From assembly GCA_963842525.1 (NCBI GenBank), contig CAWJGT010000009.1, positions 736,001 to 800,000 on the forward strand: a stretch of 64,000 nt of DNA, read 5' to 3'. Below the pieces are notes generated by a model. The model made no database searches, was not told the DNA's origin, and was given only the letters and a program-made list of their open reading frames with translations. This DNA is from an uncultured Holophagales bacterium (GTDB lineage: Bacteria > Acidobacteriota > Thermoanaerobaculia > Multivoradales > UBA5704). Positions 21,165-58,013 of this stretch are shown in pieces; positions within the stretch are counted from its first letter, which is position 1, and each line of letters starts with the position of its first letter. Position numbers and translations under genes: made by a program.

Positions 21165-22119
21165 ATGAGAATGCAGCGCATCCTGTTTCCCCTCGGTGCC
21201 GCGGTGCTCTTCGCCGTGGCGGGGTGGGGAGGCGCCGCGCAACGGCAGCCCGGACCGGCCCAGCAACCACCCGCCCCCCCGGCGGCCAGCGCCTCGGCGG
21301 CCTACGTAGGCAGCGACGTCTGTACGGCCTGCCACGGCGAGGTCGCCGACCACCTGGCGAAGACCCCGCACGGCAAGGGCGGCTTCGCCCGCCTTTCCAA
21401 CCTGGGCTGCGAGACCTGCCACGGCCCGGGAGCGCGCACGCGGAAGACCCGGACAACCCGGCTCTCCATCCCCGAGTGGACAAGCTGAGCGTCGAGCGGC
21501 AGTCCGCGGTCTGCCAGAGCTGCCACGGCGGCGCCAGCCAGTTCCTCTGGCACGGCAGCGCGCACGAGCGGCGCAACCTCTCCTGCGTGAGCTGCCACAG
21601 CATCCATTCCTTCAAGTCGGAGAACGCGCAGCTCAAGACGGCGAGCACCCCGAGTCGTGCCTGTCCTGCCACAAGGACGTGCGCGCGGAAATGTGGAAGA
21701 ACTCGCATCACCCTATCCGCGAGGGCAAGATGGCGTGCGCCGACTGCCACAACCCGCACGGCACCCAGACCCCGAAGCTGATCAAGGCCGCGTCGGTCAA
21801 CGACCAGTGCTACACCTGCCACGCCGAGAAGCGCGGCCCGTTCCTGTGGGAGCACCCGCCGGTGCGGGAAAACTGCATGAACTGCCACACGCCGCACGGG
21901 TCGAACCACATCAAGCTGCAGAAGACCTCGGTGCCCTACATCTGCCAGCAGTGCCACGCCAACACCCGCCACCCGGGCACGCTCTACGACGCCTTCCGCG
22001 CGCCGACGCTCGAAAATCCGGCGACCGGCAGCAACCGGCTGTTCAACCGCGCCTGCCTGGATTGCCACGCGGCGGTCCACGGCTCCAACCACCCGTCGAG
22101 CCCGTACCTCGCGCACTAG
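21165..22119 (+). CDS. DmsE/MtrA/MtoA-family decaheme cytochrome c (frameshifted)
   Basis: 10 CxxCH across frames: CTACH, CETCH, CQSCH, CVSCH, CLSCH, CADCH, CYTCH, CMNCH, CQQCH, CLDCH; EKRGPFLWEHPPV; HGSNHPS. Confidence 0.92.
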
Positions 22120-22128
22120 GAGGATGCC

Positions 22129-24496
22129 ATGAGCACGATTCCGCAGAGCTCTGGCTCGTCGCGTCGTCGCCGCCGTGCTCCTCCTCGCGGGCCTGCCGCT
22201 CGCGGCGCAGGAGACGGAGGCGGAAACCGAGCCACGCTGCCGGGACGGAAACGCAGGCCGAAGCCGCGACGGAGGCCGAATCCGCGACCGAACTGAAGAG
22301 GCGACCGAGCCAAGGCTTCACCTTCCGGGTCGACCCGCTGGTCCTCCAGGTCCTGGAGACCGACGTCGACACCGAGTCGTCCAAGTTCGAGGAGTACCGT
22401 GATCTCGACAGCGGCTTCCGCCCCTCGCTCCATCTGTTCGGCGAGGGCGGCGACCGCACGCTCGATATCCGCGCCGACGCGATCGGCCGCGACGACGCCC
22501 GCTATACCCTCGACTACGGCGTATCCGGCCGGTACGGGCTCCTCTTCGATTTCAACAAGATCCCGCACCGCTTCGGCAACAACGGCCACATGCTGTGGAC
22601 GCGGACCGGCGCCGGCCGGCTCGAGATCGCCGACCCCGTCCAGGCCGCCATCGAAGGGGCCGTGGCACAGCAGTTCGCCACCAACCGGACCGGGGTGAAT
22701 TTCGCCTTCCTCAACGGCCTGCTCGCCCCATACCTGGCCACCGCCACCGAGGTCGACCTCGGCCTGATCCGCGACCGGACGCTCGTCCGGCTCGACCTGG
22801 GCCGCATGGCGCGGCTGGGCTGGAGCCTCGAATACAGCCACGAGAACCGCAAGGGCGACCGACCCTTCGGCGGCAGCTTCGGGTTCAACAACGTCACCGA
22901 GATCCCCGAGCCGATCGATTACAAGACCGACGCGGCCGAGCTGGCCGGCGAATGGAACACCCGGCAGGCCGGGCTGCGCTTCGGCTACCGCTACTCGACC
23001 TTCAAGAACGACATCAGCACACTGATCTGGGACAATCCGTTCCGGATCAATCCCTCGACCGATGCGAACGCCTATCAGTCACCCAGCTCGTCGTCCATCA
23101 ACGGCTCGAGCCTCGGCTTCGCCGACCTGGCGCCCGACAACGAGTCGAGCCTGCTCTTCCTGACCGGCCGCGCCCGGTTCGGGGGCGACTGGTTCGCCAA
23201 TGGCAGCGTGTCCTACAACGTCATGACGCAGGACGAGCCGCTGCTGCCCTACACGTTCAATCCGGCGATCGTCGGCATCGCCGAGACCGGCGCTGCGTTC
23301 GACCCGACCGAATCGCCAACCTTCCGGCCCGCAACGCCGACAACAAGGTCGACGTCTTCAACATCAGCGCGCAGACAGGCACCCGGTTCGGCGAGAGCCT
23401 GGGACTGACCTTCCGCTACCGCCTCTACGATTACGACAACAAGTCGCAGCGGATCGAGGTCCCCGGCTATGTGCGCTTCCATGCGGTCTGGGAAGAGATC
23501 CCGCGCATCACGGTCCCCTACGCCTACACGGTGCAGGACCTGGGAGCCGAGTTGGGCTGGGACTTCGTGCGCAACAGCCGCCTCGCCCTCTCCTACACCC
23601 TTCAGACCTGGGACCGCGAATTCCGCGAGGTGGAAAGCTCGGACGAGGACATCCTCAAGCTGAGCTTCGACAGCCGGCCGTTCGCCTGGCTCAACCTGCG
23701 AGCGAGCTACGAGATGGGCGACCGGTCGATCGACGGCTACGACCCGGAGGCCCAGGAGGCCAGCTTCGTCGATCCCGCAGGGGTCAGCAACCTGCCGGCG
23801 CTGCGCAAGTACGAGCAGGCCGCCCGCAAGTACGATCAGCTCAACGTCCAGGCCCAACTCGCGGGACAGGCCTGGAACCTCACCTTCGGAGTCACCGGGC
23901 GCGACGAGGACTACGACGAGAGCGCCTTCGGCCTGATCTCCGACGAGGTCCTGCAATACAACTTCGAGGTCGGCTACACGCCCGGAGACAACCTCAACTT
24001 CTACGTCTTCGGCCATCGCGCCGACCGCGACGTCTTCCAGCGCGCCCGCCAGTCCGGCGCGACCCCTTCGAACAACCCGCTGGACGACTGGACGGCGGAT
24101 TTCGACGAAAAGACCGACACCTGGGGCCTGGGCTTCACGTCCCGCTTCGCCGAGAAGTGGACGACCGACATTTCCGGCCGCTGGTCGAAATCGGACGGCT
24201 TCGCGGACTTCACCGCCTTCCCCGGCGGCCTGCCGCTGTCCGGCCGCCCTGTCCAGCAGGCCCTCGACTTCGACAACTACGAGGACATCGAGCTCCTCAG
24301 CCTGCTCGGCCGGCTGGACTACCGGATCACCGACCAGGCCTCGGCGGGGGTCTTCTACCGCTACGAGGACTACACCATCGACAGCTTCATCCTGCAGGGC
24401 CTGACCAACTACCTGCCAGGCGCGCTGCTGCTCAACCCCGAGCAGGGGGACTACCAGGCCAACATCTTCGGCCTGGAGCTGAAGCTGGCCTTCTGA
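22129..24496 (+). CDS. MtrB/PioB-family outer-membrane beta-barrel (frameshifted)
   Basis: SSKFEEYRDL, EIPEPIDYKT, LIWDNP, LAPDN; terminal Phe; follows the decaheme gene. Confidence 0.88.
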
Positions 24497-29064: not shown

Positions 29065-29312
29065 AAAACGACAGCAGACCGCAGCAGTCACCACCGAGTC
29101 GGCACACGTTGTCCAACGTTGGTGAGGTGCTCCCCCGGTTCATGACCTGGCCCGAGGTGATCAGTTGGTCAAGCCTGTCCCGGTCCACGTTGCGACGGGA
29201 AATCGCGGCCGGCCGGTTCCCCGCCCCGGAGACTCTCAGCCCTGGAAGGGAAGCCTTTCGCGTGGACAAGCTCCGCGAATGGCAAGAAGGCCGGCGCGAC
29301 TGGGCCGCCTAG
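29061..29312 (+). CDS. AlpA-family excisionase/regulator
   Basis: FMTWPEV...SLSRSTLRREIAAGRFPAP..LSPGR.AFR. Confidence 0.85.
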   Translation: MKNDSRPQQSPPSRHTLSNVGEVLPRFMTWPEVISWSSLSRSTLRREIAAGRFPAPETLSPGREAFRVDKLREWQEGRRDWAA

Positions 29313-30609
29313 GCCTGAGAAGGCACCACGCCGGCCGGCTCGCCGAAGAAGATGCTCCGTAGATGGGCGTCCCAACGCAGCCCGGCCGTCCATTTCTCGG
29401 CGTCGTAGTCATAAAGGTTGTAGTGAATCGTTTCGATGGTCCCATCAGTGTGGTTGACCAGACGTCGCCGGACCTCCTGCAGCACGCCAAGCCGAGCCAA
29501 GGAAGTCAGGAACGTCGTCCGCAGGTTGCGAGCCACGAAGGGGAAGCCCACCTTGGCCGACACCTGGGAACAGAACGCCGTGATGCTCTCGGCGTGGAGG
29601 TGATGGTCCTGCAGCCGATCGCTGGGGAAGACATACGGCAGCCCGGCACTCAACCTCTCGACGCGCGGCAGCACATACTCGCTCCACAGCGGCAGCAGCG
29701 GCACCCGGTGATCCCGTCCCGTCTTCGTGTACCGCCGCCGCCCAATGTAGCCCGGCAGGTTCCACCACTGAGCCTCCAGATCCTGGCGGCGCATGCCGAC
29801 GGTTTCGGTGGTGCGCTGGCCCAGCAGGAGGCGCGTCAGCACCACCAAAGCGAACAGATCCCGGGTCGTAGTGAACTGGCCGTTGTGCAGCTCCGCCTGT
29901 TTGTCGGGCACCGGCTGGTCGGCGATCTCCAGGAGGGCAAACCACAGCGCCCGGAGCTGGTCATCGGAGAGGCTCCTGCGTTCCGGAGGCGCGGCCGGCT
30001 TGGGGTAGGGGAAGCGCCGGACCGGGTTGTACTCGACGAGCTCGCGCCCTTCGGCCCAGGTGAAGATGGCCGAGATCACAAACAGCAGGCCGCGAGCGCT
30101 GACGGCGTGCCCGCCGGTGACGAGCCGGTCGATGACCAGATGGAGATGGCGCTTGCGCACCTCGCCAGCGGGCATCTGGCCGATGACGGGAATCACATCC
30201 TTGCGGACCCGCCGCTGGACGTCGTACCAGGTCGCGAGATGATCGCGAGCGTGGCGCTCCATGTAGAGCTCGAAGAGCCCGCGAAGGTCATCGGGTGTTC
30301 CTCGGGAGCCTCGGGAGGAGCCATCCGAAGCTTCTTCGGGTCCCGCCCCGAGCTGGCGGCGTTAAGATCCTGTCGAGTCTCCTCGCGGGCCTGAGCGAGG
30401 GAGACGCGGGGGAAGGGTCCGATGGTCCGGCGATCCTGCTTGTCCTGGCCCTTGACCCTGTAGACGACGGAGAAGGAGCCATGCCCCTTGTCGCTCTTGC
30501 GGAAGCGAAGCCCCGGGACCACCGTGTCACTCCATTCCTGCCTTTCCTTGCCATCGGGAACGCGGAGACCGCGCAGGGTGCGATCCTCAAATTTGATGTT
30601 GTAGCTCAT
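29309..30609 (-). CDS. P4-like tyrosine integrase with arm-binding N-terminal domain (frameshift ~30270)
   Basis: DTVVPGLRFR...TIGPFPRVSLAQAR; GQRTTE, TKTG, ARNLRTT, VNH, HYNLY. Confidence 0.88.
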
Positions 30610-42751: not shown

Positions 42752-44497
42752 TCATCGGCTGAGCCCTGATTCTGAGCTCTGGCAGTCCTGACGCCAGACG
42801 GCGGGCAGGCGCTGGAGGATCTCTTCCTTCGACAAGCGACGGGGCTTCACCGCCTGGAGCATCAGCTCGCGCTGCATCAACTGATCGCCGACCAGGATGC
42901 CGTTGGCGTAGAATGTCGCTTCCCCGGCGGCCGCCTCCTCCTCGGTTCCGACGCGCAGGTTGTGCACCGGCACCGCCTTCGGGCTCGGCTGGCGGCCGAC
43001 TTCGACGAGAGCCGCCTCTCCGCTCTCTGTGAGCACGACATCGCCCTGCTTGAGCTGGCTTGCCATGACCGGCCCCCGGGAGGTGACCACCGGGTGCGCC
43101 TCGGTCAGCAGCAAGGTGTGCCCCCGGTCGTCACGGATGCGCACCAGGGGGTGTTCCTCGGAGCCCCAGGTCTTCCCTGTGACCGCGCGCACGTCCGCCT
43201 TGCCCTGTGACCGCACTTTCTCGTCGCCGTAGGCCTGGAACGTCTCGATGGCCCTCTCCGAGCCATCTGCCATGCGGACTTTCACGCCCGCGGGCAGACA
43301 GCCCTGCAGAACGTCGATCTTCGGCACGATCACCGTGTTCGACGTCGCAACCTTCGGCTTCCTGCTGGTGAACGTCGCGCCGATATGGCCGCCCGCCGTC
43401 TGCAGGAACAGTTGGAAGGTGTAGTCGAACAACATGCCGTTCGGCCTCAGGCAGTCCTTGTTCGGAAAGCTGGCGGGATTGAGATTCCAAGTCACGATAC
43501 CCTTGTCCACCTTGATGGCCGAAAGGTCGGTCGTCGCAGTCAGCATGCATCCGCCGCCGGCTGCGTCGGTCAAGGTGATGTCCAGAGACCCCGTCAGAGG
43601 GCTCGTCGGAGCCTTGGCCGGGGTGAAGTTGCCGGCGATGGGAAAGATGATGTTTGGCGGATTGCCGCTGCCCGTGCACCCATAATCGCAGTCGCTGTTG
43701 ACGCGCGGCCCATAGCAGATCTTGATGTTCCCCCGTGTCGGATCGACGCAGGCCGTGGCGGCGTTGGTGTTGCACTGCTGGGTTCCGCCTCCACCGGCGG
43801 GCTTGTAGTTCGGCGAGAGCTGGCAGGCGGCCCTCACGGGCTTCAAATCTGTAAGCAGGATGACGTAGGGCTCTACAAGGTCGTGCTTCTTCTGTTTGAT
43901 CAGGAAGAGCGCGTTGGCTTCGATGTCGCTCTCCGAAACCGGTCTCCCCGCAACCGCGACCTCCAGGTTCGTTTGCGCGCACAAGCTGCCTTCCTTGGAG
44001 CCGATATTGGTGTTTTCCTCGAGGTCGATGAGGGTCAGGATGATCCTCGTGTAATCAGGGACCTGATCGCTCGGGTAGGTCGAGAAGGCGCTGGTGTAGA
44101 AGTCTCCGTCTTCCAGCTGGCCGAACTCGGTGATGTAGTTCACGCCTTCGAGCGTAAGTCCTGCCTTGACGAGGCGCGGCTTGCCCGTTTTGCCGGTTGT
44201 GCGTGCCTTCTCCAGGAGCTTGAATAGATGGGGAGACCTCTCGGCGGAGACGCCGGCCCGGCGGAGTGTGTCGATCACGAAAGCGTACTGCCGCGGGTCG
44301 GCCAGGTTCAGCTTGTAAGGCAGACCGATCGCAACGTTCTGGCGGAGATAGCGGAGATTGGTGACCTCTTTCGCGGAAAGCTTCGTTCCTGTCGGCGCCC
44401 CTCCAGAGCTTTCGGCGCCGAGCAGGGACGAGGCGAGGAATAGCCCGAGCAGAAACATCAAGACGAACGCCGAGTGAAGGGCTTGAGGTTTTCTCAT
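42752..44497 (-). CDS. Secreted Cys-rich protein with C-terminal Hint domain
   Basis: Signal peptide; G|CLPAGVKVRMADG, LTEAHP, VHNL, FYANGILVGD. Confidence 0.88.
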   Translation of the reverse strand: MRKPQALHSAFVLMFLLGLFLASSLLGAESSGGAPTGTKLSAKEVTNLRYLRQNVAIGLPYKLNLADPRQYAFVIDTLRRAGVSAERSPHLFKLLEKARTTGKTGKPRLVKAGLTLEGVNYITEFGQLEDGDFYTSAFSTYPSDQVPDYTRIILTLIDLEENTNIGSKEGSLCAQTNLEVAVAGRPVSESDIEANALFLIKQKKHDLVEPYVILLTDLKPVRAACQLSPNYKPAGGGGTQQCNTNAATACVDPTRGNIKICYGPRVNSDCDYGCTGSGNPPNIIFPIAGNFTPAKAPTSPLTGSLDITLTDAAGGGCMLTATTDLSAIKVDKGIVTWNLNPASFPNKDCLRPNGMLFDYTFQLFLQTAGGHIGATFTSRKPKVATSNTVIVPKIDVLQGCLPAGVKVRMADGSERAIETFQAYGDEKVRSQGKADVRAVTGKTWGSEEHPLVRIRDDRGHTLLLTEAHPVVTSRGPVMASQLKQGDVVLTESGEAALVEVGRQPSPKAVPVHNLRVGTEEEAAAGEATFYANGILVGDQLMQRELMLQAVKPRRLSKEEILQRLPAVWRQDCQSSESGLSR

Positions 44498-44548: not shown

Positions 44549-44595
44549 TTCGGCACGCTGCCAGGCGTCGTCGCGCACTGCGTTCCCCGCGCTCA
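44549..44595. repeat. 47-bp direct repeat, copy B
   Basis: Matches 42697-42743; overlaps the lectin stop codon. Confidence 0.9.
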
Positions 44596-44982
44596 AGCCG
44601 CGACGGTGATCCTCACCGTGAGCGATCCCTCGTTATCGGTGAAGCCGGCGCCGTAGATGCCGTTCATGTCGTCGTTGATGCTGAGGTGGAGAGGTCCGAT
44701 CAGGCCGTCCGGCACGAAGCCGATGGGGCCGACGGGGAACACCACGGGCGAGCCTCCTGCGACGACGACCTGGCCCACGAGCAGCCCTTCGACCTGCCCC
44801 TCCAGGTTGTATCCCTCCTTGGCGATGAGCCCAGCGTGGCCGTCCGGACCGACCAGGCCGTTGGCCGGGTTGGCGCTCCACTCGCCGTTCGCTGCGATCC
44901 TCACCGTAGCGGTTCCGTCCAACGTCAGCCCGGTGTCCATCCAGAGAGTGGTGGCGTCGACTGTCACGTTGAAGTCTGGCAT
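44593..44982 (-). CDS. LecA/PA-IL-like lectin
   Basis: WMDTG, IAANGEW, GLLVGQV, INDD...FTDNEGSLTV (cf. PA-IL NDVPGTYGNNSGSFSV). Confidence 0.75.
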   Translation of the reverse strand: MPDFNVTVDATTLWMDTGLTLDGTATVRIAANGEWSANPANGLVGPDGHAGLIAKEGYNLEGQVEGLLVGQVVVAGGSPVVFPVGPIGFVPDGLIGPLHLSINDDMNGIYGAGFTDNEGSLTVRITVAA

Positions 44983-45015: not shown

Positions 45016-47277
45016 CTATTGTCTTCGTCCCGGCGGCGGCGAGCGCCGGAGAGGATCCAGGCCGCTCTTGAGCTGCGTGCCGGTTAGAGCCCTCCGGGCG
45101 ACCGGCGCCTGCTGAGCGACTGACGACACGGCCAGCGCAAAAGGCTGCCTCGAGCCCGGCGCAAGCGTGGCCGCCGTGACGGTGATCGTACATGCGCCCG
45201 CGGGCGTCTGCGCCAGGATCAGCTTTTCGAACGAATTCGCCGTGTCGGCAGGCCCATTGGCGGCCGTCTGGCCGTTCTGCATGCTGGGCACTCCTCCGTG
45301 GTAGACGGTGGTTCCGTCCGCCAGCGTCAGCGTGAGGTCGAGGTCGTTGACCAGCGCTCCCGCCAAACCGGCGTCCGGCGGGTCGTACCAGGTCAGTGTG
45401 ATTGCCAACTGCGTGGCGGCCGAGAACGTCAAGTTGGGGAAGACCACCGACTGTCCCTGTTGGGTGAACACGAAGGCTGCGCCGGGCTCGGTCAGAGAGT
45501 CGAAATACATGATCTGACCGGCGCCGAAACCATCGATCGACTGCCGCAGGTTGATTTCGCCCCAGCCCTGCATGTTGTCGGGCACGTAGTTGTAAAGCGG
45601 CGAAGTGCCGTTGACGAGCAGGGCCTTGACCAGCATCCCCGTCGCGTTGGGCAGGTTCGTCTGGGTGGCGAGGAACTCGCGGAGCAGCACCGCCGAGCCG
45701 GACACCAGCGGCGTCGAGAAGGACGTTCCGGAGGCATAGGCAAAGCCGGGCTGGTTCAGGTACGGCTGGTTGGACGGGCCCGCCCCGGTCGCCGGACAGG
45801 TCGCCGCCATGGACTGGGGACAGCGCATCGCGACCATGGCTCCGGGAGCGCAGACGTCCGGCTTGAGGCGGCCGCCCACCACCGGACCCTGCGAGCTGCT
45901 GTTGGCCATCGCGTTGATCGCCGTGGCCGTGGGATAGGTGAAGGGAGGCCCGGCCGCGCCCGTCGGAGGGGTGCCGTTGCCCGCATTGCCGACCACGAGC
46001 GAATCCTTGGAGCAGCTCAGGGTGCCGATCGAGCCGGCTCCCTGGGCGCCGTAGTTGCCGGCGGAGGTCACTACCAGCATGGTCGGGTTCGTCCCGACGA
46101 ACGTGTCGATGGCGGAGGACCCTTGCAGCGAGTACGTGTTGAGCACAGGAGCGAGAACGGGAAAGGTGCCGGTGGCGGGCACCCAACTGTTGTTGTGCAC
46201 CCGCGCATTCGCGGCGAAGGCGTTGGTCAGAGCGCGATCGATGTTCAGATAGCCTGGTTGCAGCCCGTTCGAATCGGCGTTGAAGGGCCGCATGATGGCG
46301 GTCGCCATAAAGGCTACACCGGTGAGGAGTCCGCCGGCAGAGGTCGCGCCGTTGCCCACGGCCACGTCGGTGACGAAGGTGCCGTGCGACGAGGGGTCGC
46401 CCTTATAGTTGAGGCCGGCCCAGCTTTGCGGGATGGTCGGGGCAGGATTGGTCCAGTTTGCGATGTCGCCGTTGACGCGCCCCTGGAAGTCCGCGAGAAG
46501 GGTTGCGGGATTCCCGGTGTCGAGCCCGGTGTCGTAAATGCCGAGCACCTGGCCGGTTCCGTCGAGGTTGTCGATGTTCGCCCAGGGCGGCGCGGCATTT
46601 GCGCGCACGCCGATCCTCACCGGCGCGATGTCGAGCTCTGGTTGCGGGGTCATGGCCGGCTCGACGTTCCATACGTCCGGCAGCGCCGCGAGCCCGGCCA
46701 GCGCCCTGGTTGGGACCGACACCACCAGCGCTTCCTTGCCGAGGGCGGTCGAGACGACGCGCGCGCTGCCGCCGAGCTTCACGATCTCCTCGGCGGTCGC
46801 CGCCGCTTTTTCAAACACGGTCACGACGACGTCCACCTTGCTCGTCGCGTCCGGGTTCTCGGCGCTCGCCCGCAGCGATGGATCGATCTTGTAGCCCGGA
46901 TGGAAGGCGTCGGCGAAGCGCACGCCCCGGAGCGCCCGGAGCTTCGCCAGGCTCAAATCGCCGACGAGAAGCCCGTGCCGGGCGATGGGGCCATGAATGC
47001 GTCCGCCGGCAGCCCGGATGGCGTCGTAGACCGCGCGTCCTTTCCCGGTCTCGTACTGGACGATCGCAACTCCCGGGTCGCCCTTGGCCAGCAGAGCCGG
47101 CGCCAGCTTCGGCGGCGCAGAGAGCGGATCGAAGGCGAAGTCACGCACGTAGAGCTTCGCGGCATTCGCGGCATCGGGTGAGGGCGGAGGCGGCGCGATC
47201 TGCGCGGCGAGAGCCCAGACCGGCAGGATCCATAGAGCGACGAGCGCGAAGAAGCGGCGTCGAGCGGACGATCTCAT
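45016..47277 (-). CDS. Secreted S8 subtilisin-family protease (KP-43-like)
   Basis: Signal peptide and prodomain; IYDTG, SHGT, SAGN, GTSFSTP; C-terminal LVNDLDL. Confidence 0.92.
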   Translation of the reverse strand: MRSSARRRFFALVALWILPVWALAAQIAPPPPSPDAANAAKLYVRDFAFDPLSAPPKLAPALLAKGDPGVAIVQYETGKGRAVYDAIRAAGGRIHGPIARHGLLVGDLSLAKLRALRGVRFADAFHPGYKIDPSLRASAENPDATSKVDVVVTVFEKAAATAEEIVKLGGSARVVSTALGKEALVVSVPTRALAGLAALPDVWNVEPAMTPQPELDIAPVRIGVRANAAPPWANIDNLDGTGQVLGIYDTGLDTGNPATLLADFQGRVNGDIANWTNPAPTIPQSWAGLNYKGDPSSHGTFVTDVAVGNGATSAGGLLTGVAFMATAIMRPFNADSNGLQPGYLNIDRALTNAFAANARVHNNSWVPATGTFPVLAPVLNTYSLQGSSAIDTFVGTNPTMLVVTSAGNYGAQGAGSIGTLSCSKDSLVVGNAGNGTPPTGAAGPPFTYPTATAINAMANSSSQGPVVGGRLKPDVCAPGAMVAMRCPQSMAATCPATGAGPSNQPYLNQPGFAYASGTSFSTPLVSGSAVLLREFLATQTNLPNATGMLVKALLVNGTSPLYNYVPDNMQGWGEINLRQSIDGFGAGQIMYFDSLTEPGAAFVFTQQGQSVVFPNLTFSAATQLAITLTWYDPPDAGLAGALVNDLDLTLTLADGTTVYHGGVPSMQNGQTAANGPADTANSFEKLILAQTPAGACTITVTAATLAPGSRQPFALAVSSVAQQAPVARRALTGTQLKSGLDPLRRSPPPGRRQ

Positions 47278-47377
47278 CGGCTGAGCCCTCCAGCGAAGAA
47301 GAGGACATGATACTATCAGACTTGCACGAAGCCTGTCGAAGCTTAGATTCATTGCTCTGTAAGCATTGGAGATTCGG

Positions 47378-48947: not shown

Positions 48948-51455
48948 ATGCGCAGGCCGACATTCCGGCGGCTGTTCGAGCTTCTGGAGGGACGGCGACA
49001 GGACTCCTACACCATCGTCGAGACCGGCGTCGCCCACCTCGCCGCTGCCGACGGAAGGCCCGGCTTCCACGCGGTCCACGGCCAGAGCACGCTCCTGTTC
49101 GACCAGTTCGTCAACGCTCGGGGAGGTGCGGTCTACAGCGTCGACTGCTCGCCCGTGCACTGCCGGCGGGCGCGGAGCTGGGTGAGCGACAGAGTCCGTA
49201 TCTTCTGTCACGACAGCCACACGTTTCTGGCCGGCTTCAGCGCGCCGACGCCCATCGACTGCCTCTATCTCGATTCGCTGGCCGTCGATTGGAGCGATCC
49301 GCATCCGAGCGCGCTGCATCATCTTGAAGAGCTGTGCGCCATTCTGCCGCGCCTGCCGGAGGGTTGCATCGTCGTCGTCGACGACACGCTACGCGGCATC
49401 GGAAAGGGCGGCTACATCGTCGAGGTGATGGAGCGCATCGGCGCCCGGCTCCTCTTCGAGGGCTATCAGGTGGCATGGCAGCTCACGGGTCCTCCGCCGG
49501 CGATCCGGCCCTGGGGGTGCTACGCGCCCGACGAGCTGGCGTTCGTGCTGGCTCGCCCGGCCGCCCTCTCGTACCGCTACGTGCGCGTGGGCTCCGACGA
49601 GCGCATCCTGGAGCTTCTGCCCGACGGCACGATCGGCCATGGGAAGGGGGAGCTGGAAGAGCGGTGGTTCGCCGAGCGCGCTGCCGGCGGAGGCGTCGGG
49701 CTGGTTCTCGCGGGCAGCGGGCGGATCACGGCGCGCCTCTCCCCCGTGCCACCGGAGGACCGTTGGCGCGGGCACTGGCTGGTCCACGATCGCGAGGCGG
49801 TCGAGCTGTGGCCGCTGCCGCCGGACGACGGAGTCATGCCGTCCGGCCGTTACTGGCTGCGCGCGGCCGAGGGCGGGGCACGCCCGCTCGGGTTGCTCGC
49901 TTCGCACGACGTCTGGAACCGTGGCGCCGGAGCCGAGACGTGGCGCATCGAACGCGGCGAGGACGGGCAACCGGTCCTCCTGCTTGCGGCGGCGGGCCGC
50001 GACCGATGGCGTTTCCATCCGGACCGCGAAGGGTGCTGGCAGGGGAGCTCGACCGCCGATCCGCCTGTCGCGGCATCGCTCGAGCTCCTCGGCCAGACCA
50101 GCGACAGCGAGGCCTCCGCGCGCACCGCTCTCGCCGCGCGCCGCCTGTTCCGATATCGCCGGGAAGGCGATGGCGAGTGGCCGATCGAGCTGGTGCCGGA
50201 CGGGACGATCGGCCGGGGCGCCACGCCGACCGAGGCCGCCTGGGACGTCGAGGACACCGGAGACGGCGAGCTCGCGCTCCTCCTCTACGGGCGCGACTCG
50301 ATGGCCGTGCGGCTGGCACAGCAGCCGGACGGCTCGTTCCTGGGCAAGTGGCCGCTGCACGACCGGCGGACGGTAAGGGTCGAGCCGCTCGACCGCGGCT
50401 CGGGCGCCTATCTCCTGCCGATCTTCACCGCGTGCCTGCCGCGCCGGCAGATCCGCCGCATCGTCGAGGTGGGAGGCGGCGACGGAGTCGACGCCGTCGC
50501 GCTGCAGCGCTATTTCGACGCCGACGTCATGGTCTTCGAGTGCAATCCCGACCTGCTCTCTGCCTGTGCCAAGCGTGCCGCTGCGTGTCCCCGCGTCACC
50601 CTGGTCGCCAAGGCCGCCGGCGAGGCCGAAGGGATGATCCCTTTCTATCGCGTGACCAACGGGAATCCGCACGCGTCCTCGTGCTTCGTCGCCAATCCCG
50701 CCTATCCCTACGAGGTCTACGTACAGGAACGCTGCGAGGTGGAGATGATCCGGCTCGACGGCTTCCTGGACGCGCAGGGGCCGGAGACGCCGGAGACCAT
50801 CGGCCTCCTGGCGATCGATGTCCAGGGAGGCTGCCTGGGCGTGCTCCGCGGCCTCGGAGCGCATCTCGACCGCGTGCGCTACGTCATCGCCGAGATCGGC
50901 ACCCGTCCCCTGTACGAAGGAGAGGCGCTGGCGCCCGAGGTCATCGCGTTCCTCGCCGGCCGCGGCTTCCATCTCCTGCGCTGGTTCGACCAGTGGGGAG
51001 TCCTGCCCGACGGAGATCTCGTCGACCCCACCGTCTTCCCGCGGCAGTACGCCGGGGCCGAAAGCTGGTTCGGCGACTACCTCTTCGTGCGCAACACACC
51101 GCGCGAAGCGGCGGCCGCGGCCGCCATCACCGCGCACCGGTTCTTCCGCTACGTGCGCCTGGGCCATGACGAACGGACGCTCGAGCTGCTGGCCGGCGGG
51201 CAGATCGGAGAGGGGCGCGGCGGGTGCGAGCGGAACTGGATCGTGGAGGAGCAGCCCGACGGCGCTGTCGAGCTGCTGCTGCTCGGTCTCGAGCAGGTGA
51301 CCTGCCGCCTCCTGCACGGCCCCGACGGCCGCTGGCGGGGGCGGTGGACGTCCCACGAACGGATGCCCGTCTTCCTGGAGCCGCTCCCGGCGGAGTCTCA
51401 GGCAGGATCCCAGGGAGCCTGCGAGGAGCCGAGCAGGGTTTCGCTGGAGGTGTAG
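48948..51455 (+). CDS. Multidomain protein: class I methyltransferase + repeat domains + FkbM-like methyltransferase (start may be ~48898)
   Basis: IVETG...YSVD...LYLDS...VVDD..GKG; VEVGGGDG...FECNP...IDVQG...IAE. Confidence 0.82.
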   Translation: MRRPTFRRLFELLEGRRQDSYTIVETGVAHLAAADGRPGFHAVHGQSTLLFDQFVNARGGAVYSVDCSPVHCRRARSWVSDRVRIFCHDSHTFLAGFSAPTPIDCLYLDSLAVDWSDPHPSALHHLEELCAILPRLPEGCIVVVDDTLRGIGKGGYIVEVMERIGARLLFEGYQVAWQLTGPPPAIRPWGCYAPDELAFVLARPAALSYRYVRVGSDERILELLPDGTIGHGKGELEERWFAERAAGGGVGLVLAGSGRITARLSPVPPEDRWRGHWLVHDREAVELWPLPPDDGVMPSGRYWLRAAEGGARPLGLLASHDVWNRGAGAETWRIERGEDGQPVLLLAAAGRDRWRFHPDREGCWQGSSTADPPVAASLELLGQTSDSEASARTALAARRLFRYRREGDGEWPIELVPDGTIGRGATPTEAAWDVEDTGDGELALLLYGRDSMAVRLAQQPDGSFLGKWPLHDRRTVRVEPLDRGSGAYLLPIFTACLPRRQIRRIVEVGGGDGVDAVALQRYFDADVMVFECNPDLLSACAKRAAACPRVTLVAKAAGEAEGMIPFYRVTNGNPHASSCFVANPAYPYEVYVQERCEVEMIRLDGFLDAQGPETPETIGLLAIDVQGGCLGVLRGLGAHLDRVRYVIAEIGTRPLYEGEALAPEVIAFLAGRGFHLLRWFDQWGVLPDGDLVDPTVFPRQYAGAESWFGDYLFVRNTPREAAAAAAITAHRFFRYVRLGHDERTLELLAGGQIGEGRGGCERNWIVEEQPDGAVELLLLGLEQVTCRLLHGPDGRWRGRWTSHERMPVFLEPLPAESQAGSQGACEEPSRVSLEV

Positions 51456-52420
51456 CTCCGCTGGAGCGGATCGGGCGGATGTCCGCCGCAGCCATACAGG
51501 GCCGGCCGGTAGATCCGGGAAAGGTCGCCGGCCAGGGGCGCGAGGTCGCGCAGGCGCGCGACGTCCTCCTGGCGCACGAAGAAGGCGTTGACGCCGGCGT
51601 TCTCTGCATAGACCAGGACGTACCCCAGCCTCGCGCCGAGACGCTGGAGAGCGAGCTGGCTGGCGCCAAAGTAGCGCGTCCCGTCCCAGGATTTGTCCGG
51701 TCCCTCGTACGGGACCACGAGGTCCTCGCCGGGACCGTGTGCGCCGTTGTGCTCGACGATCACCACGCGGGGAGAGAGCAGCTCGCCGATCCGCCACCAG
51801 AATCGTAGTAGTCGACGTCGATGCTGAGCACGTCGAGCTGCCTGGGGACCTGGTAGCGCTCGACCAACGCGGGGATGTTGTCGAGCGTGACCAACTCGCG
51901 GTAGAGGCCGCGGGACGGATTGTGAAAGCCCAGGTCCCATTGCAGCACCGTGGCTCCCGCCTCGGCCAACACGCGGGTGTTGCACTCGCTGCCGTCTCCG
52001 ACGCCGAACTCCAGCGCGACCGGCCCGCGCACGCCGAGCTCCTGGAGCAGCGCCAGGAGAACGCCATCCTCGCCGTTCTGCGAACGCAGGCGAGCCTCGG
52101 CGCCGTACAGCGGGCTCTCCTTGTACCAGCTCAGACCGTTGTCCCAGTCGATGCGGTGCGTGCCCGCGAGCCGGGCCTCAGGATGGTCCGGACCGAAGAA
52201 GACGCGGAAGCGCACGGGCGCCTCGATCCATTCGAACCGCAGCCTCGGCAAGCGCAACCGCGGGTCTCCGTCACCGGCGATCCGGATGCGCCAGCCGGGG
52301 TAATACCATGTCCCCAGGAGGTCGGCGGGCGGATCAGATCCGGGAACGACGATCAGCTCCTCGATCAAGCTGAATCCCCAGTGCTGCGGCCGGAAGCAGA
52401 AGAACGGCGGCGGATCAATC
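51398..52420 (-). CDS. FkbM-like methyltransferase (frameshift ~51800; start approximate)
   Basis: SQNGEDG, LEFGVGDGSECNT, LSIDVD; PRVVIVEHN, YFGAS, GVNAFFVR. Confidence 0.8.
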
Positions 52421-54511
52421 CTGGCCGGTGCGGAGCCACCAGTAAGAGCCCTGGCTCGGCTTGCGCCGGACGTTGGTGGCACAATGGATTTCGCCGTGAT
52501 CCATGTGGTATGCCCAAGTGTCGACGCTGGTCCCTGTAAAGCCGTAGCGCCCCAACACGCTGAGAGTGTAGGCTTCAAAGACGTCCGCATTCGCCTCGAC
52601 CGTGAAAGGTTCCGTGATGGGTATCTGAATCGGGCCCGGCGTGACGGGCCCGTAGGGTTTGGGGAAAAGACAGCGATTGGAAAGCACGAGCATGTTGACG
52701 ATATCGGCGGTCAAGGCTTCGAGCTTCATCATCGCTTGAAAGAACAGGACGGGGACCTCCTCGATCACGACTTGCGATTCCGGAAACTCGTCACGAATGC
52801 GCTGGATCACTCCCAAAAGCTTTGCCTGTGCAGATTTAGAGTCGAACTCTCCCTCTCCTTGCTGTGTGCTCGTGAGCACGGACTCATACCTCGCTCTGGG
52901 GTCCTCCGACTCCTCGAGCTCGAAATCCACTCCGAGGTTGATGAAATCCGCCCCGGGGGCTATCGGAGCCGCCAAGAAATCCACGAGCGACTGCCCGGCC
53001 TGGCGCGTTCCGTCGGCCAGTTTTATCTCCCGGTCAGTGAGAATCGTCGCGCCGGGGTGCTGGAGCAAAGTTTCGTAGATCAGGCGATAGGCGAGCCGCG
53101 GGCTCGGGACCAGCGCCAGGGCGCGGCGGTCGGGCAGCGGCAGGAAGCACACGACTTCGTCCGCGTGCCCGACTCGGAGCCAGGAGGCATCCAACGAAAA
53201 TGGCCGCTGAACCCTCTGCGCCCTGAGGAAATCTTTGAGATCCTCACGCGAGGGCTCGGAAAAATAGACTCTGCCGAGGATGTCGTCGCCGAGGGGCGGA
53301 GTAACCTCCAGATTCCCGAAGGCGAGGGTTGTGTTGGTGTTTGGCACTTGTTCGCCAACCTGGAACACGCTCATACCAAGCTTTTCTTCGGTCACGCGCC
53401 CCTGCCATCTTTCGACGGGCGAGCGGAGCGCGACCATCACTGCGCGTTCCGCGGTGGCGCGCGTATGGCCGATTTCGAAGCCGTCCTGCATGAATAGCCT
53501 TTCGGCCGCAGACTCGGTAGTGATCTGCTCACGCTGAAGCCCGCACTCTTGAAGGGCCTCCACGGTCGTTGTATACCGGTGCTGTTCATTAGGCGGAGAA
53601 GGCCCTCCTCCCGGGGAGAGCTTCAGCGCCACGTAACCGTGCTCCACCTCTTCTCCGTGATGCATCATGACCCAGGGCGCGATCCGCAAGCGGGCGTACT
53701 GCGGCTCGCCGGCGATCCCGTTGATGAGCGGTGTGAAGGTCACGACCACGCATGGGTCCGCCGCCAGGTCGCGCAGGTACTGGGTTGCTTCCGCGAAGAA
53801 CCGCACGACACCGTCGCCCTCGGCGGGGAATGCGAACTGGTGGACCCCTCGATCCAGAACGATGGCGCCGCCTTCGGCCGTAAAAAACCGAACTCTCTCG
53901 GGAGCGCTGACCGCGATGATGCCCTCTACCATGGGACGCGGTGATGCGCCGAGCACTGACTCCGTCAGTCGAAATTCGAAAGGCGCCCAAGCTTCGCGAT
54001 TCGGTTCAGGGTTCTCGTTCGCAATCAGGATCGCACCGCGCCCCTCGGGCCCGAAGGTCCACTGGTCGATCCCTTCGGAAACCAGCACGCCGTTGCGTGC
54101 GGCGTCCACGAACATGCGTGCGGCCGGCGCCGGCGGCGCCTTGAGTACAACGACGATCTCGACCTCCAGAGAGCCTTGGTTGTCCGCCAAGCCATCCCCG
54201 TGCTGCGCGTTGAGGTCGTCGTTGATTCCCAAAAACAACTGTCCGCGACCCATCGCGGAAACGTTCGCGCCCCGCCCCCCCACCCAGAAAACGGCTTCGC
54301 CGATCTTCCCCACCAAGCCGCCTTCCGGTTGGCCCGGAACCGCATAGCCGTCCGTGGCGGTGTGCTTGGAATCCCCTTCCGGGCCGTATCGGCCCGAGTC
54401 CGGATTGCACGTCCACTCTCCGCCCTTGCAGAGGACGTACACGTCGTGACCCTCGTCAACGACGACTCCCGTCGCCGTCCAACGAACGTTGGCAAGCACC
54501 TGGACTTTCAT
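52415..54511 (-). CDS. LecA-like lectin fused to protein-arginine deiminase (PAD)
   Basis: N-terminal WTATG...INDD...DNQGSLEV; WTFGPEGRGAIL, RIAPW, MQDGFEIG, FGNLEVTPP, WLRVGHADE, VNMLVL, GEIHCATNVRRKP. Confidence 0.9.
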   Translation of the reverse strand: MKVQVLANVRWTATGVVVDEGHDVYVLCKGGEWTCNPDSGRYGPEGDSKHTATDGYAVPGQPEGGLVGKIGEAVFWVGGRGANVSAMGRGQLFLGINDDLNAQHGDGLADNQGSLEVEIVVVLKAPPAPAARMFVDAARNGVLVSEGIDQWTFGPEGRGAILIANENPEPNREAWAPFEFRLTESVLGASPRPMVEGIIAVSAPERVRFFTAEGGAIVLDRGVHQFAFPAEGDGVVRFFAEATQYLRDLAADPCVVVTFTPLINGIAGEPQYARLRIAPWVMMHHGEEVEHGYVALKLSPGGGPSPPNEQHRYTTTVEALQECGLQREQITTESAAERLFMQDGFEIGHTRATAERAVMVALRSPVERWQGRVTEEKLGMSVFQVGEQVPNTNTTLAFGNLEVTPPLGDDILGRVYFSEPSREDLKDFLRAQRVQRPFSLDASWLRVGHADEVVCFLPLPDRRALALVPSPRLAYRLIYETLLQHPGATILTDREIKLADGTRQAGQSLVDFLAAPIAPGADFINLGVDFELEESEDPRARYESVLTSTQQGEGEFDSKSAQAKLLGVIQRIRDEFPESQVVIEEVPVLFFQAMMKLEALTADIVNMLVLSNRCLFPKPYGPVTPGPIQIPITEPFTVEANADVFEAYTLSVLGRYGFTGTSVDTWAYHMDHGEIHCATNVRRKPSQGSYWWLRTGQD

Positions 54512-54713
54512 GGAAGCCCTCCCGCAGGAGCCCGGGTAACGCAGATCAGCAAGAGGCGGCGAGCGCACGGGCGAATCGGCGCCGACGCGCGCACGCGCCG
54601 CCAGCCCATCTCGGCTACATCTGGAATCTTCTAAAGATTACCGCAGAGCTGACTTCTTGTCCAGCGGCTCCCGCCTCGTGCGCCTCGTGAAGCGCGCTCC
54701 GGGAGCCGGGGGC

Positions 54714-55673: not shown

Positions 55674-55697
55674 GGACGATCGGCCGTCAGGAGCCGA

Positions 55698-56883
55698 TCA
55701 GGCGGCGGCCTTCTGGGTCTCCACGTCGTCGCCGAGGAGCCGGTGGACACCCCGCCGCAGGATCAGCTCGCCGAGGGGCACGTCCTTTTCGAGATAGGTG
55801 CGGGCGCGCTCGTCCACCAGCAGGTCGGGGCGCAACGCCTCGTTGATCGGCTTCTTGTCCGGGCCGGTGTAGAAGGCTTCGGTGAAGAGCAGCCGTCCGC
55901 CGGTGGACAGCTCGGCCATGCCCTGGCGGCCGGCGTAGCCGAAGGTCCGTTCGCCGACCAGCTCGGCCTTGACCTTCTGGCGCAGGACCGTGGCGAGGAC
56001 CTCGGCGGCGCCGAGCGTGCCGCGGTCGACGAGGACCACCATCCGGCCTTGCCAGGTGGGCTTGGTGTCGCCGCCGAAGGCCTGGACCTGCTCGGCGCGC
56101 CGCTGCAGCGCGCCGAGGTCGCCGGTGGCGAACAGGCGGGCGGTGGCATAGGCGGCCTCCGGATCGCCGGAGGAGACGCCGCGCAGGTCGATCGCGATGC
56201 CGCGGCGCGTCCGCTCGGTGCCGTTTTCGAGGAGCTTGCGGACCTGCTCGGCGGTCTGCGCGTCGAAGGTCGGGATGCGCAGCACCGCCACGCCCTCGAC
56301 CTCTTCCATCGACGAGGCCGGCGCCGCGAAGGGCGCCAGCGTGAACGAGACCTGGACGGGCTCGCCGAGGCGGATGCAGCTCCAGGCCCACCTTGGTGCC
56401 CGGCTTGGCGGCCAGGGTCTCCTGCATCTCCCAGAGCGGCATGGTGCGGGTAGTGCGGTCCTGGACCTCGGCCACGATGTCGCCGGGCTTGATCCCCGCC
56501 TCGCCGGCCGGGCTCCCTTTCTCCACCGCCACCACGTAGGCGAAGCCGTTCTCCTTGAGCAGGGTCAGGCCGCTCTGCCGCCAGCCGAGGTTGCGCACCG
56601 ACAGGTAGGTCTCCACCTGCGCGGCCGGGATGTAGAGCGAGAACGGATCGAGCGCGTCGGTCGTGCCGTCGAGGGCGCCGGCCATCAACGACTCCATGTC
56701 GGGCGCATCGACATAGCTCTGGCGGACCAGGCCCAGCACCTCGGTGAAGACGGAGAGGTACTTGTAGAGGGAATCCTCGTCCTGCGGCGCCTGCCGGTCC
56801 GCGGCGCGCAGCAGCGCGTCGGTCAGGAAGGGGAAGGTCAGGAGGAAGGAGACGAGAAAGAAAGCGGTGCGACTGCGGCTCAT
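55698..56883 (-). CDS. S41/CtpA-like PDZ protein with altered catalytic dyad (frameshift ~56375)
   Basis: YVD...LDPFS, GSPAGEAGIKPGD; IDLRG, TLGAAEV, GERTFGY. Confidence 0.82.
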
Positions 56884-58013
56884 GGTGCTCCCCGTAACCA
56901 GCTCAAGGGGTCTTCGGGACGGTTCTCGACGCGGATCTCGAAATACAGCCGATCCGAGGCGAGCCCGACGACACCGCCTAAAGATACCACATTCTGGGGA
57001 ATCACCCGGAGCTCGGAGAGGCCGGCGTAGAGGGTGAAGACGCGGCCCGCGTGGTGGACCACCGCGGTGTTGCCGTAGCCTTGGAACGGCGCGGCGAAGA
57101 TCACCCGGCCGGGGAAGACCGCCCGCACCTCGCCGGCCGGCACGGTGGCCAGGTCGATGCCGTTGTGCGGCACCCGCGTGCGGTAGCGCGGATCGAGCCG
57201 CGGGCCGAAGCCGAGGGTCACCCGGCCTGGCGCCGGCCAGTCGAGCACGCCGCGGAACTGCTGGATGGGCGTGCCGGCAAGGGCGTCGGCGTTGCGGCCG
57301 TAGAGGAGGTCGAGGAGCGCGGCCATCTTGCGCTCCCGGTCCTCCAGGGTGCGGGTGCGGGCAGTCAGCGATTCCTCCTCCTTCTCGACGCGGGCGAGCA
57401 GCACGGCCCGGCGGTCGCGCACGGCGAAGAGCTCGCGGCGGCGCGCGGCCTGGCGGGCCGTCCATTGCTCCTTCTCCTCGCGCTCGGCGAGCAGGCGGTC
57501 GCGCTCGCGGCCGAGGCGCTCGCGGGCCTCCCGGTGGCGGTCGAAGGCCTGGCGGTCGCGCCGGGCCAGGTATCGCATCAGGCGCAGGGATGGGAGGAGC
57601 GGCCGGTCCGGGTCGAGCGACAGGAAGAGCCGGAAATAGCCGTGGCGGCCGAGCCTGTAGAGCGCGGCGAGCCGGCGCCCCAGCTCGCGGCGGGTCGCCT
57701 CGGCCGCTGCTCCAAGCCGCGCCACCTCGGCCTCGCTCGCCTCGATCCGCCGGACGGCCAGGTCGCGGGCGGCCAGCGACTCGGCGAGCCGGACCTCCTG
57801 GAGCCGCAGCTCGAGGTCGGCCGCCGCGAGATCGTCGCGCAAGCCGCGGCTGCGTTGCCGCGCTCCCGAGAGCTGGCCTTCCAGGCGGCCGATCTCCGCC
57901 CGCAACGCGGTCAGCTCCTGCTCGCGGGTTGAATGCGGCTGGGGAAGGGCGGGAACGGCCAGGGCTGCGATGAGACAGAGGCAGGCGCTCCGGCGCAGCC
58001 CCGGCGCGCTCAC
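56880..58013 (-). CDS. envC: Murein hydrolase activator, M23 family
   Basis: Signal peptide, coiled coil, WP..G, HNGIDL, LYFEIR; gene order with S41-like and yibQ-like genes. Confidence 0.8.
   Translation of the reverse strand: MSAPGLRRSACLCLIAALAVPALPQPHSTREQELTALRAEIGRLEGQLSGARQRSRGLRDDLAAADLELRLQEVRLAESLAARDLAVRRIEASEAEVARLGAAAEATRRELGRRLAALYRLGRHGYFRLFLSLDPDRPLLPSLRLMRYLARRDRQAFDRHREARERLGRERDRLLAEREEKEQWTARQAARRRELFAVRDRRAVLLARVEKEEESLTARTRTLEDRERKMAALLDLLYGRNADALAGTPIQQFRGVLDWPAPGRVTLGFGPRLDPRYRTRVPHNGIDLATVPAGEVRAVFPGRVIFAAPFQGYGNTAVVHHAGRVFTLYAGLSELRVIPQNVVSLGGVVGLASDRLYFEIRVENRPEDPLSWLRGAP

Follow-up and report, generated by a model that had tools for sequence, protein, structure and literature searches.

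Citrullination of proteins is well studied in animals, while its role in bacteria is almost unknown. Two earlier reports bear on the present case: Cummings et al. 2021/22 (PMC8826395), who described two- and three-domain peptidyl-arginine deiminases (PADs) of the PADI family, including a Ca-dependent cyanobacterial enzyme, and Harris et al. (2020 preprint, bioRxiv 10.1101/2020.07.16.207027), who surveyed 837 bacterial PF03068 proteins, one of them tied to citrulassin. Functional data were found in these sources for only the cyanobacterial enzyme and the Streptomyces lasso-peptide PAD. Here we describe a predicted deiminase of the same family, encoded by an uncultured Holophagales bacterium (assembly GCA_963842525.1, contig CAWJGT010000009.1), whose N-terminus is related, at the level of a family profile, to the lectin LecA. 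The host is an environmental acidobacterium by its SucD as well, which is 82-86% identical to its best named relatives; among its 120 best matches, the 15 that carry an organism name all come from Acidobacteriota, 13 of them labelled Thermoanaerobaculia. The window, i.e., the whole stretch of DNA analyzed, comprises 64,000 nucleotides (contig positions 736,001 to 800,000), and all coordinates below are positions in it. The gene occupies 52415..54511 on the minus strand as an open frame of 698 codons plus stop, and its product (P0001) is predicted to consist of a PA-IL/LecA-superfamily domain, a short linker, a PAD_M-like middle domain, and a PAD catalytic domain. The frame had been singled out in an earlier note made from the letters alone; it is real, and all of the motifs quoted for it are present.

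The catalytic domain (amino acids 274-692; 52436..53692, minus strand) scored 150.5 bits (E 9e-44) with the Pfam family PAD (PF03068), whose cut-off is 25, over profile positions 8-394 of 395. The best solved relatives of P0001 were the human PADI4 chains, at E 1.8e-31 for the single sequence, and a profile (A2) of the five-member clade formed by P0001 and its four lectin-PAD relatives (P0002-P0005) reached PADI4 at 2e-49 in one stretch over PAD_M and PAD_C (chain residues 140-519). PF04371, the Porphyromonas-type family (PAD_porph), gave no match to P0001 at E<=1, in agreement with the earlier assignment to the PADI family rather than to the PPAD/agmatine deiminase type. Homologues were collected by an exhaustive search of 1.84 billion representatives, which gave 2104 matches at E<=1e-3; the best 150 were taken and the matches of a word-index search were added. 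A PAD core was present in 143 of the stored proteins, and 116 near-full-coverage rows together with P0107, P0010, P0011, and P0013 made up the 120 rows aligned with MAFFT, the other 23 being omitted for incomplete coverage. The motifs MQD (341-343), VGHADE (447-452), and GEIHCATNVRRKP (673-685) contain the complete catalytic set proposed in the note, namely Asp343 (codon 53483..53485), His449 and Asp451 (His449-Ala-Asp451, 53159..53167), and the nucleophile Cys677 (52481..52483), equivalent to Asp350, His471, Asp473, and Cys645 of PADI4, and each of these four columns is identical in 120/120 cores. The PADI4 equivalences were read off alignments with a chain offset of +3, the value at which D, H, D, and C stand at the known catalytic positions. 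Taken together, these results support the prediction that P0001 is a PF03068 (PADI-family) deiminase with a complete catalytic set.

The middle domain (amino acids 133-273; 53693..54115, minus strand), which has a short loop instead of the acidic loop of Ca sites 3-5, was assigned from the clade profile alignment and not from Pfam, because PAD_M (PF08527) scored 19.2-21.4 bits, below its cut-off of 24.8, and spanned amino acids 135-171 only. The signature that had been read in this region, VDAARNG...WTFGPEGRGAIL, is indeed present at amino acids 135-162. PAD_N (PF08526) had no match in P0001 at E<=1 or E<=10.

The assignment of the N-terminal domain (amino acids 1-123; 54143..54511, minus strand) rests on its family. 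With the single sequence, phmmer against the PDB returned nothing relevant, NCBIfam returned nothing, and the word-index search among proteins of 69-223 amino acids gave 0 matches, while 15 proteins that match P0001 over amino acids 1-130 only were recovered by the exhaustive search. A profile (A1) built from an alignment of 19 N-domain relatives matched, over approximately 105 residues, solved PA-IL-type lectins in the PDB and hardly anything else, with 30ew at 5.2e-7, PllA (5odu) at 7.7e-7, LecA (1l7l) at 2.6e-5, and 6ygq at 7.7e-4, the next match being at 0.25. The Pfam family PA-IL (PF07828) was found at E<=1 in 10/19 family members (best 2e-5), P0001's own copy not being among them, and its cut-off of 22.5 was reached in whole-protein scans only by P0045 (47.1 bits) and P0130 (22.8 bits). 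We conclude from the profile matches that the N-domain belongs to the PA-IL superfamily. The earlier description of this domain as LecA-like is thus sustained at the level of the 19-sequence profile and finds no direct Pfam or PDB match for the protein itself.

The residues of LecA that bond galactoside and Ca, as given in PMC9300185, are His50, Gln53, Asp100, Thr104, Asn107, and Asn108, and these align with H50, D54, D98, Q103, D110, and N111 of P0001. The domain contains the conserved motifs N97-D98-D99 and D110-N111-x-G113. No columns of the family alignment are better conserved than these N-D-D and D-N-x-G motifs: N97, D99, N111, and G113 recur in at least 90% of the 19 sequences, and all five lectin-PAD proteins have N97-D99, D110, N111, and G113 unchanged. 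The N-domain probably keeps its Ca site, judging by these columns. It is followed by a Pro/Ala-rich linker (KAPPAPAAR, amino acids 124-132; 54116..54142, minus strand), the point at which relatives switch to other C-terminal modules.

When the N-domain was used as phmmer query, the lectin-like module was found in 21 of the 159 stored proteins, and among these 159 it is joined to a PAD core in P0001-P0005 only. The four relatives of P0001, all on contigs of 2.4-3.3 kb, are 711-713 amino acids long, 46-48% identical to it, and align with it from end to end. Pfam scans of 77 PAD-bearing proteins gave no PA-IL match in any of them; the modules attached to other PAD cores are PG_binding_1, OmpA, LysM, CarboxypepD_reg, Peptidase_S8, amine oxidase, rhodanese, and ubiquitin hydrolase, the first four of which are binding modules placed N-terminally. 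Accessory modules are the rule among PAD cores, as predicted from these domain assignments, and it is the lectin type that is new. No match of the same architecture was found in plasmids, and no match was found in phages. A literature search, covering article texts without their supplements, turned up no report of a PA-IL/LecA domain joined to a PAD, and the word "lectin" occurs 0 times in the texts of Cummings et al. (PMC8826395) and Harris et al. (bioRxiv 10.1101/2020.07.16.207027). The predicted lectin-PAD fusion is rare, with five proteins in all, and the pairing is undescribed in the texts searched.

Two unrooted trees were inferred from the PAD cores, one with FastTree from the 120 rows and one with a quick IQ-TREE run (LG+C20 PMSF) from 47 rows. 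In both, the lectin-PAD proteins, five in number, group together (support 99); P0015/P0016 are the sister of this group (97 and 96), and all of them fall within a 15-row clade (99). Among sister rows, P0018, P0021, and P0022 begin with Cys/His-rich segments that look eukaryotic, by eye only. Pfam PAD_N was found in only 2/77 PAD proteins scanned, the animal-type rows P0107 and P0114, both nested in a different, well-supported clade, and the check by phylogeny proposed in the note gave no grouping of P0001 with them. The term "vertebrate-type" used there consequently holds for P0001 at the family level only, and at the clade level it fails, since P0001 lies in a separate, strongly supported clade in both trees. 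Nor does the lectin-like domain replace PAD_N, as had been proposed: according to PMC8826395, PAD_N is missing from fungal PADIs and, except in late-diverging cyanobacteria, from bacterial ones, and given this report and the 2/77 count above, the lectin-like domain is an addition. A profile search of genome contigs with the clade alignment, in a set that does not include the window's genome, returned no close relative and only two distant loci (one from Microscilla and one from Polyangiaceae, L001 and L002) of 163 candidate stretches.

The Ca sites of PADI4 were taken from a figure legend in PMC13023937, which has Glu349 where the PADI4 chain has Gln. Site Ca1 (Q349, E353, E411) is kept as Q342, E346, and E402 in P0001 and in 5/5 members of the clade. 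The Ca2 ligands E351, D369, and N373 correspond to G344, R363, and E367, the first two invariant in the clade (5/5) and the third varying across its members as E/E/T/P/P, with Glu in P0001. The Ca4 switch residue D388 is S381 in P0001 and Asp in the four relatives. For sites 3 and 5, N153 and E252 are kept as N165 and E241, D155 is Asn167, and the D155-D179 segment is shortened to the 13 residues from N165 to P177. At this acidic loop, PADI4 has a 20-residue insertion in the HMMER alignment, and the three animal-type rows aligned there have 30-35 residues, which bears out the claim that the acidic segment after GAIL is reduced; the Ca-binding residues of P0001 are depleted. The 120-row alignment is gappy at the N-terminal side (45 rows are gapped at N165), so counts for Ca3-5 are soft.

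These substitutions are not peculiar to the fusion. Arg is the majority state at the PADI4 D369 position (69/120 rows), Glu occurs at the E351 position in only 11/120 rows, and the Ca2-site residues of P0001 correspond, in this alignment, to the common non-animal state. Similarly, the 13-residue loop is common to sister rows without a lectin-like module, so that the shortening of the acidic loop is independent of the lectin fusion. In Cummings et al. (PMC8826395), Ca sites 2 and 4 are described as exclusive to the animal and late-cyanobacterial clade, with which the predicted loss of Ca2 and Ca4 in P0001 agrees, and sites 1 and 3 as fully conserved. By comparison with PADI4, only Ca site 1 is conserved in P0001.

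Our tentative interpretation is that P0001 is a peptidyl-arginine deiminase under reduced Ca control that is directed to its target by a ligand, most likely a glycan, and we hold this view with somewhat less than even confidence, the glycan itself being something that we infer. A PAD_M and PAD_C core of the PF03068 family would have acquired an N-terminal domain of the PA-IL/LecA superfamily, which would bind a ligand, most likely a carbohydrate, via Ca2+ at D98/D110/N111, and this binding would hold the enzyme on a glycan-bearing target. There, peptidyl-arginine would be converted to citrulline, with Cys677 attacking the guanidinium group held by Asp343 and Asp451, and His449 serving as acid/base. 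Activation would need little Ca2+, or the Ca1 site only, because little is left of Ca sites 2-5 and the Asp369 position is taken by Arg363, which is invariant. The target may be a product of the neighboring glycosyl- and methyltransferase cluster, which also encodes a stand-alone lectin paralogue. A target outside the cell would be reached only by lysis or non-classical release, since a signal peptide is missing. LecA reportedly leaves the cell by lysis or a non-classical route.

Several observations weigh against this interpretation. The N-domain of P0001 has no match to PF07828 in Pfam searches at E<=10 and E<=1. The positions that contact galactose in LecA, His50 and Gln53, vary across the family; His50 is kept only in P0001, where the Gln53 position is Asp54. 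Because these positions are not conserved, the N-domain may differ from LecA in sugar specificity and may even not bind sugar. No Sec-type signal peptide was detected in P0001 by inspection or by a crude script heuristic, as the note had also claimed, and the same heuristic found one in only 3/110 Met-starting PAD homologues, a scarcity that suggests a cytoplasmic family. Furthermore, many relatives of the lectin module are joined to modules of cytoplasmic type such as TIR, and relatives without signal peptides are joined to TIR or helical domains; such joins would fit an intracellular sensor or adaptor role equally well as glycan targeting.

The last point leads to the alternative that we consider unlikely but the most deserving of attention, that P0001 is a conflict-system effector, in which the PA-IL-like module would be a portable sensor or address domain and the PAD an interchangeable head, acting in intracellular defense or against competitors instead of modifying, by way of glycans, targets of the organism's own. 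The company kept by the module in the wider family is in its favor. It occurs in tandem in P0031 and P0043, with Laminin_G_3 in P0045 and P0051, with a PI-PLC-like region in P0108, and with TIR in P0127, which also gave PADLOC matches to PDC-S66 (3.3e-10) and ThsB (8.9e-4); it lies at the end of P0012, whose N-terminus is lipoprotein-signal-like by eye. Most family members are without signal peptides. P0085 and P0136 have N-domains that share 64-78% identity with their counterparts in P0002, P0003, and P0005, about as much as these three share among themselves (approximately 71%), and yet the sequence directly after the linker is non-PAD in both. P0085 and P0136 were considered as fragments of lectin-PAD proteins and rejected as such, given that their C-terminal parts are non-PAD; these parts have no Pfam, PDB, or NCBIfam match. 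The continuation of P0136, on the other hand, resembles the module that precedes the PAD core in P0115 (E 3.7e-16) and P0073 (6e-9), so that P0136 may be an incomplete lectin-X-PAD protein and not an example of a different head. The base composition of the gene also fits transfer: its GC content at third codon positions (GC3) is 0.75, the lowest of 13 genes measured, against 0.82-0.935 in the 12 others of the window, which is compatible with acquisition from elsewhere. Against an effector role, P0001 has no PADLOC match, no immunity-like small gene is evident next to it (the downstream frame is methyltransferase-like by eye and has no Pfam match), and the searches of phages and plasmids found no relatives with the lectin-PAD architecture. 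A more general version, in which the lectin-like module would be the constant address or sensor of modular effectors whose unrelated heads (arginine deiminase, TIR, PLC-like, or domains of no known type) are exchanged behind nearly identical lectin modules, so that citrullination, by an enzyme mostly released from Ca2+ control, would serve as a weapon or defense in bacterial conflicts, we regard as doubtful.

The possibility that P0001 tailors a peptide or natural product, deiminating a distally encoded peptide in the manner of the citrulassin PAD of Streptomyces albulus, with the N-domain helping to recruit the substrate, seems improbable to us. The only non-cyanobacterial PF03068 enzyme found with functional evidence does act on a lasso peptide, and the genes for PADs of this kind lie apart from those for their substrates, in neighborhoods that vary, according to the preprint (bioRxiv 10.1101/2020.07.16.207027). 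The 53 open reading frames (ORFs) of the window scanned by Pfam include no genes of the type for peptides made on the ribosome and modified after translation (RiPPs), and P0001 is phylogenetically distant from most other PAD cores. Moreover, a lectin-type domain is not known as an element of peptide recognition, which we count against tailoring.

We give an equally small probability to hydrolysis of a guanidino group on a non-protein substrate, such as a small molecule or a glycoconjugate decorated with arginine or agmatine, the sugar part of which would be bound by the lectin module. Glycosyl- and methyltransferase genes adjoin the deiminase gene, and the pocket differs from the one in PADI4, Trp347 being replaced by Phe340 and Arg372 by Val366. 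The equivalent of PADI4 Arg374, a residue that presumably contacts the peptide backbone, is nevertheless kept, as R368 in P0001 and in 5/5 members of the clade. In Cummings et al. (PMC8826395), the catalytic and substrate-binding residues are all reported as conserved across PADI homologues and the cyanobacterial PADI as citrullinating proteins, both of which count against a non-protein substrate. Finally, a misassembled chimeric ORF or an inactive relic is hardly credible, for although two nearby genes have apparent frameshifts (possible assembly indels) and the only 100%-identical copy in the representative library, P0014, is a protein of 358 amino acids (341-698, starting at Met341) without the lectin-like and middle domains, the frame is open over 698 codons, the complete architecture recurs from end to end in four independent relatives, and no member of the clade deviates at the catalytic and lectin-loop residues.

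The start of the gene was placed at the ATG at 54511, which is preceded, 5 nt upstream, by the Shine-Dalgarno-like sequence GGGAGGG (54517..54523, minus strand). Because of this sequence, and because the four full-length relatives start at the equivalent residue, this ATG is the better candidate than the GTG at 54568, which would add 19 residues without counterpart in the four relatives. No promoter-like site was seen for the gene and no terminator after it; around it, the tRNA search and Rfam gave 0 matches each, and no flanking repeats suggestive of a mobile element were found. Approximately 115 nt upstream of the start, in an AT-richer patch, there is an inverted repeat with perfectly matching 6-bp arms, 3 nt apart (AATCTT TAG AAGATT, 54625-54639), a possible regulator site.

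Upstream of the deiminase gene, the minus strand encodes an M23 peptidase, a PDZ/S41 tail-specific protease, and a YibQ-type deacetylase. The tail-specific-protease-like gene (55687-57465) has an apparent frameshift near 56370, with PDZ in one frame and Peptidase_S41 (84 bits) in the other (55698-56309), and may be either a pseudogene or the product of an assembly indel. Downstream and beyond are a methyltransferase-like ORF pair (by eye), a double methyltransferase of 835 amino acids, a mannosyltransferase, a secreted S8 peptidase, a secreted Hint-like protein (weak), and a TPR-GT9 protein. The ORF pair just downstream of the deiminase gene (51398-52590, minus strand) looks by eye like an S-adenosylmethionine-dependent methyltransferase. 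A TTG some 50 nt beyond the stop codon of the deiminase gene is a possible start, the reading frame switches near 51800 (frames 51760-52590 and 51398-51985), and neither Pfam nor NCBIfam gave a match. The 835-amino acid protein (48948-51455, plus strand) combines Methyltransf_24 and an FkbM-type Methyltransf_21, and three copies of a segment of approximately 35 residues, F/Y-R-Y-x-R-x-G...E-L-L/V-P/A-D/G-G-x-I-G, were recognized in it by eye. PADLOC gave no match for P0001 or its neighbors.

A second lectin-like copy, a stand-alone paralogue of 129 amino acids without signal peptide, is encoded 7.4 kb from the deiminase gene (44593..44982, minus strand), with 40% identity by tblastn (E 2e-15) and a probability of 99.9% by hhalign against the A1 profile. 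Its gene starts 33 bp after that for the S8 peptidase (45016-47352) ends, upstream of the gene for a secreted protein of 581 amino acids, and its presence implies that the lectin family is not foreign to this genome or to this glycosylation-rich stretch. A specific relationship of the window's S8 peptidase to PAD-fused S8 domains was considered and rejected, the similarity being generic (33-35% identity over 77-122 amino acids, E 5e-6 or weaker). The 581-amino acid protein (42752-44497, minus strand) has a signal-peptide-like N-terminus by eye and a sub-threshold Hint/pretoxin-HINT region at amino acids 398-520 (PT-HINT E 6e-4), and the GC3 of its gene, 0.82, is the second lowest of the 13 measured. 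Farther away in the window there are a phage-type integrase gene (29309-30262, minus strand) and an MtrB/PioB-type outer-membrane porin (21657-24496, plus strand), apparently split over the overlapping frames 21657-23408 and 22595-24496, maybe by another frameshift.

A PAD core joined to a lectin-type domain offers a testable handle on the substrate of a non-cyanobacterial PADI, and a natural PADI with a single Ca site could reveal to what extent the Ca switch of animals can be done without. Should the lectin module turn out to be an exchangeable domain for targeting or sensing, a new family of modular effectors would be defined, and a glycan-directed citrullinating enzyme with a low Ca need, if P0001 is one, could be a useful tool.

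Among the known systems, human PADI4 and the animal PADIs (PF08526, PF08527, and PF03068) have in common with P0001 the catalytic set, the Arg374 equivalent, the Ca1 site, and probably a middle domain homologous to PAD_M, while P0001 differs in having a PA-IL-like N-terminus instead of PAD_N, Gly344, Arg363, and Glu367 at the Ca2 ligands, Ser for Asp388, the 13-residue loop, and a place in another part of the tree. The two-domain PADIs of fungi and non-cyanobacterial bacteria, as described in PMC8826395, are alike in their PAD_M and PAD_C core without PAD_N and in the non-conservation of Ca2 and Ca4; P0001 has, unlike them, an extra lectin-type domain and a depleted Ca3 site, which is reported there as conserved. 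The citrulassin PAD of S. albulus (Harris et al. 2020) resembles it in a neighborhood without an obvious substrate gene, and the Porphyromonas-type PAD (PPAD, PF04371), though citrullinating and of the same guanidino-modifying superfamily according to PMC8826395 and bioRxiv 10.1101/2020.07.16.207027, is of a different family. LecA of Pseudomonas aeruginosa (PA-IL) and PllA of Photorhabdus share with the N-domain the aligned Asp and Asn-Asn/Asp-Asn Ca and sugar ligands and the lack of a signal peptide, but they are stand-alone lectins of 121-125 amino acids, whereas the N-domain is part of an enzyme of 698 amino acids that, compared with LecA, has a four-residue insertion (consensus G-D-G-L) in the binding loop and differs at the Gln53 and Thr104 equivalents. 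Many bacterial PAD cores reach 250-340 bits with the Pfam PAD profile against 150 bits for P0001, and the other bacterial PAD fusions follow the same logic as P0001, that of an accessory module attached to a PAD_M and PAD_C core.

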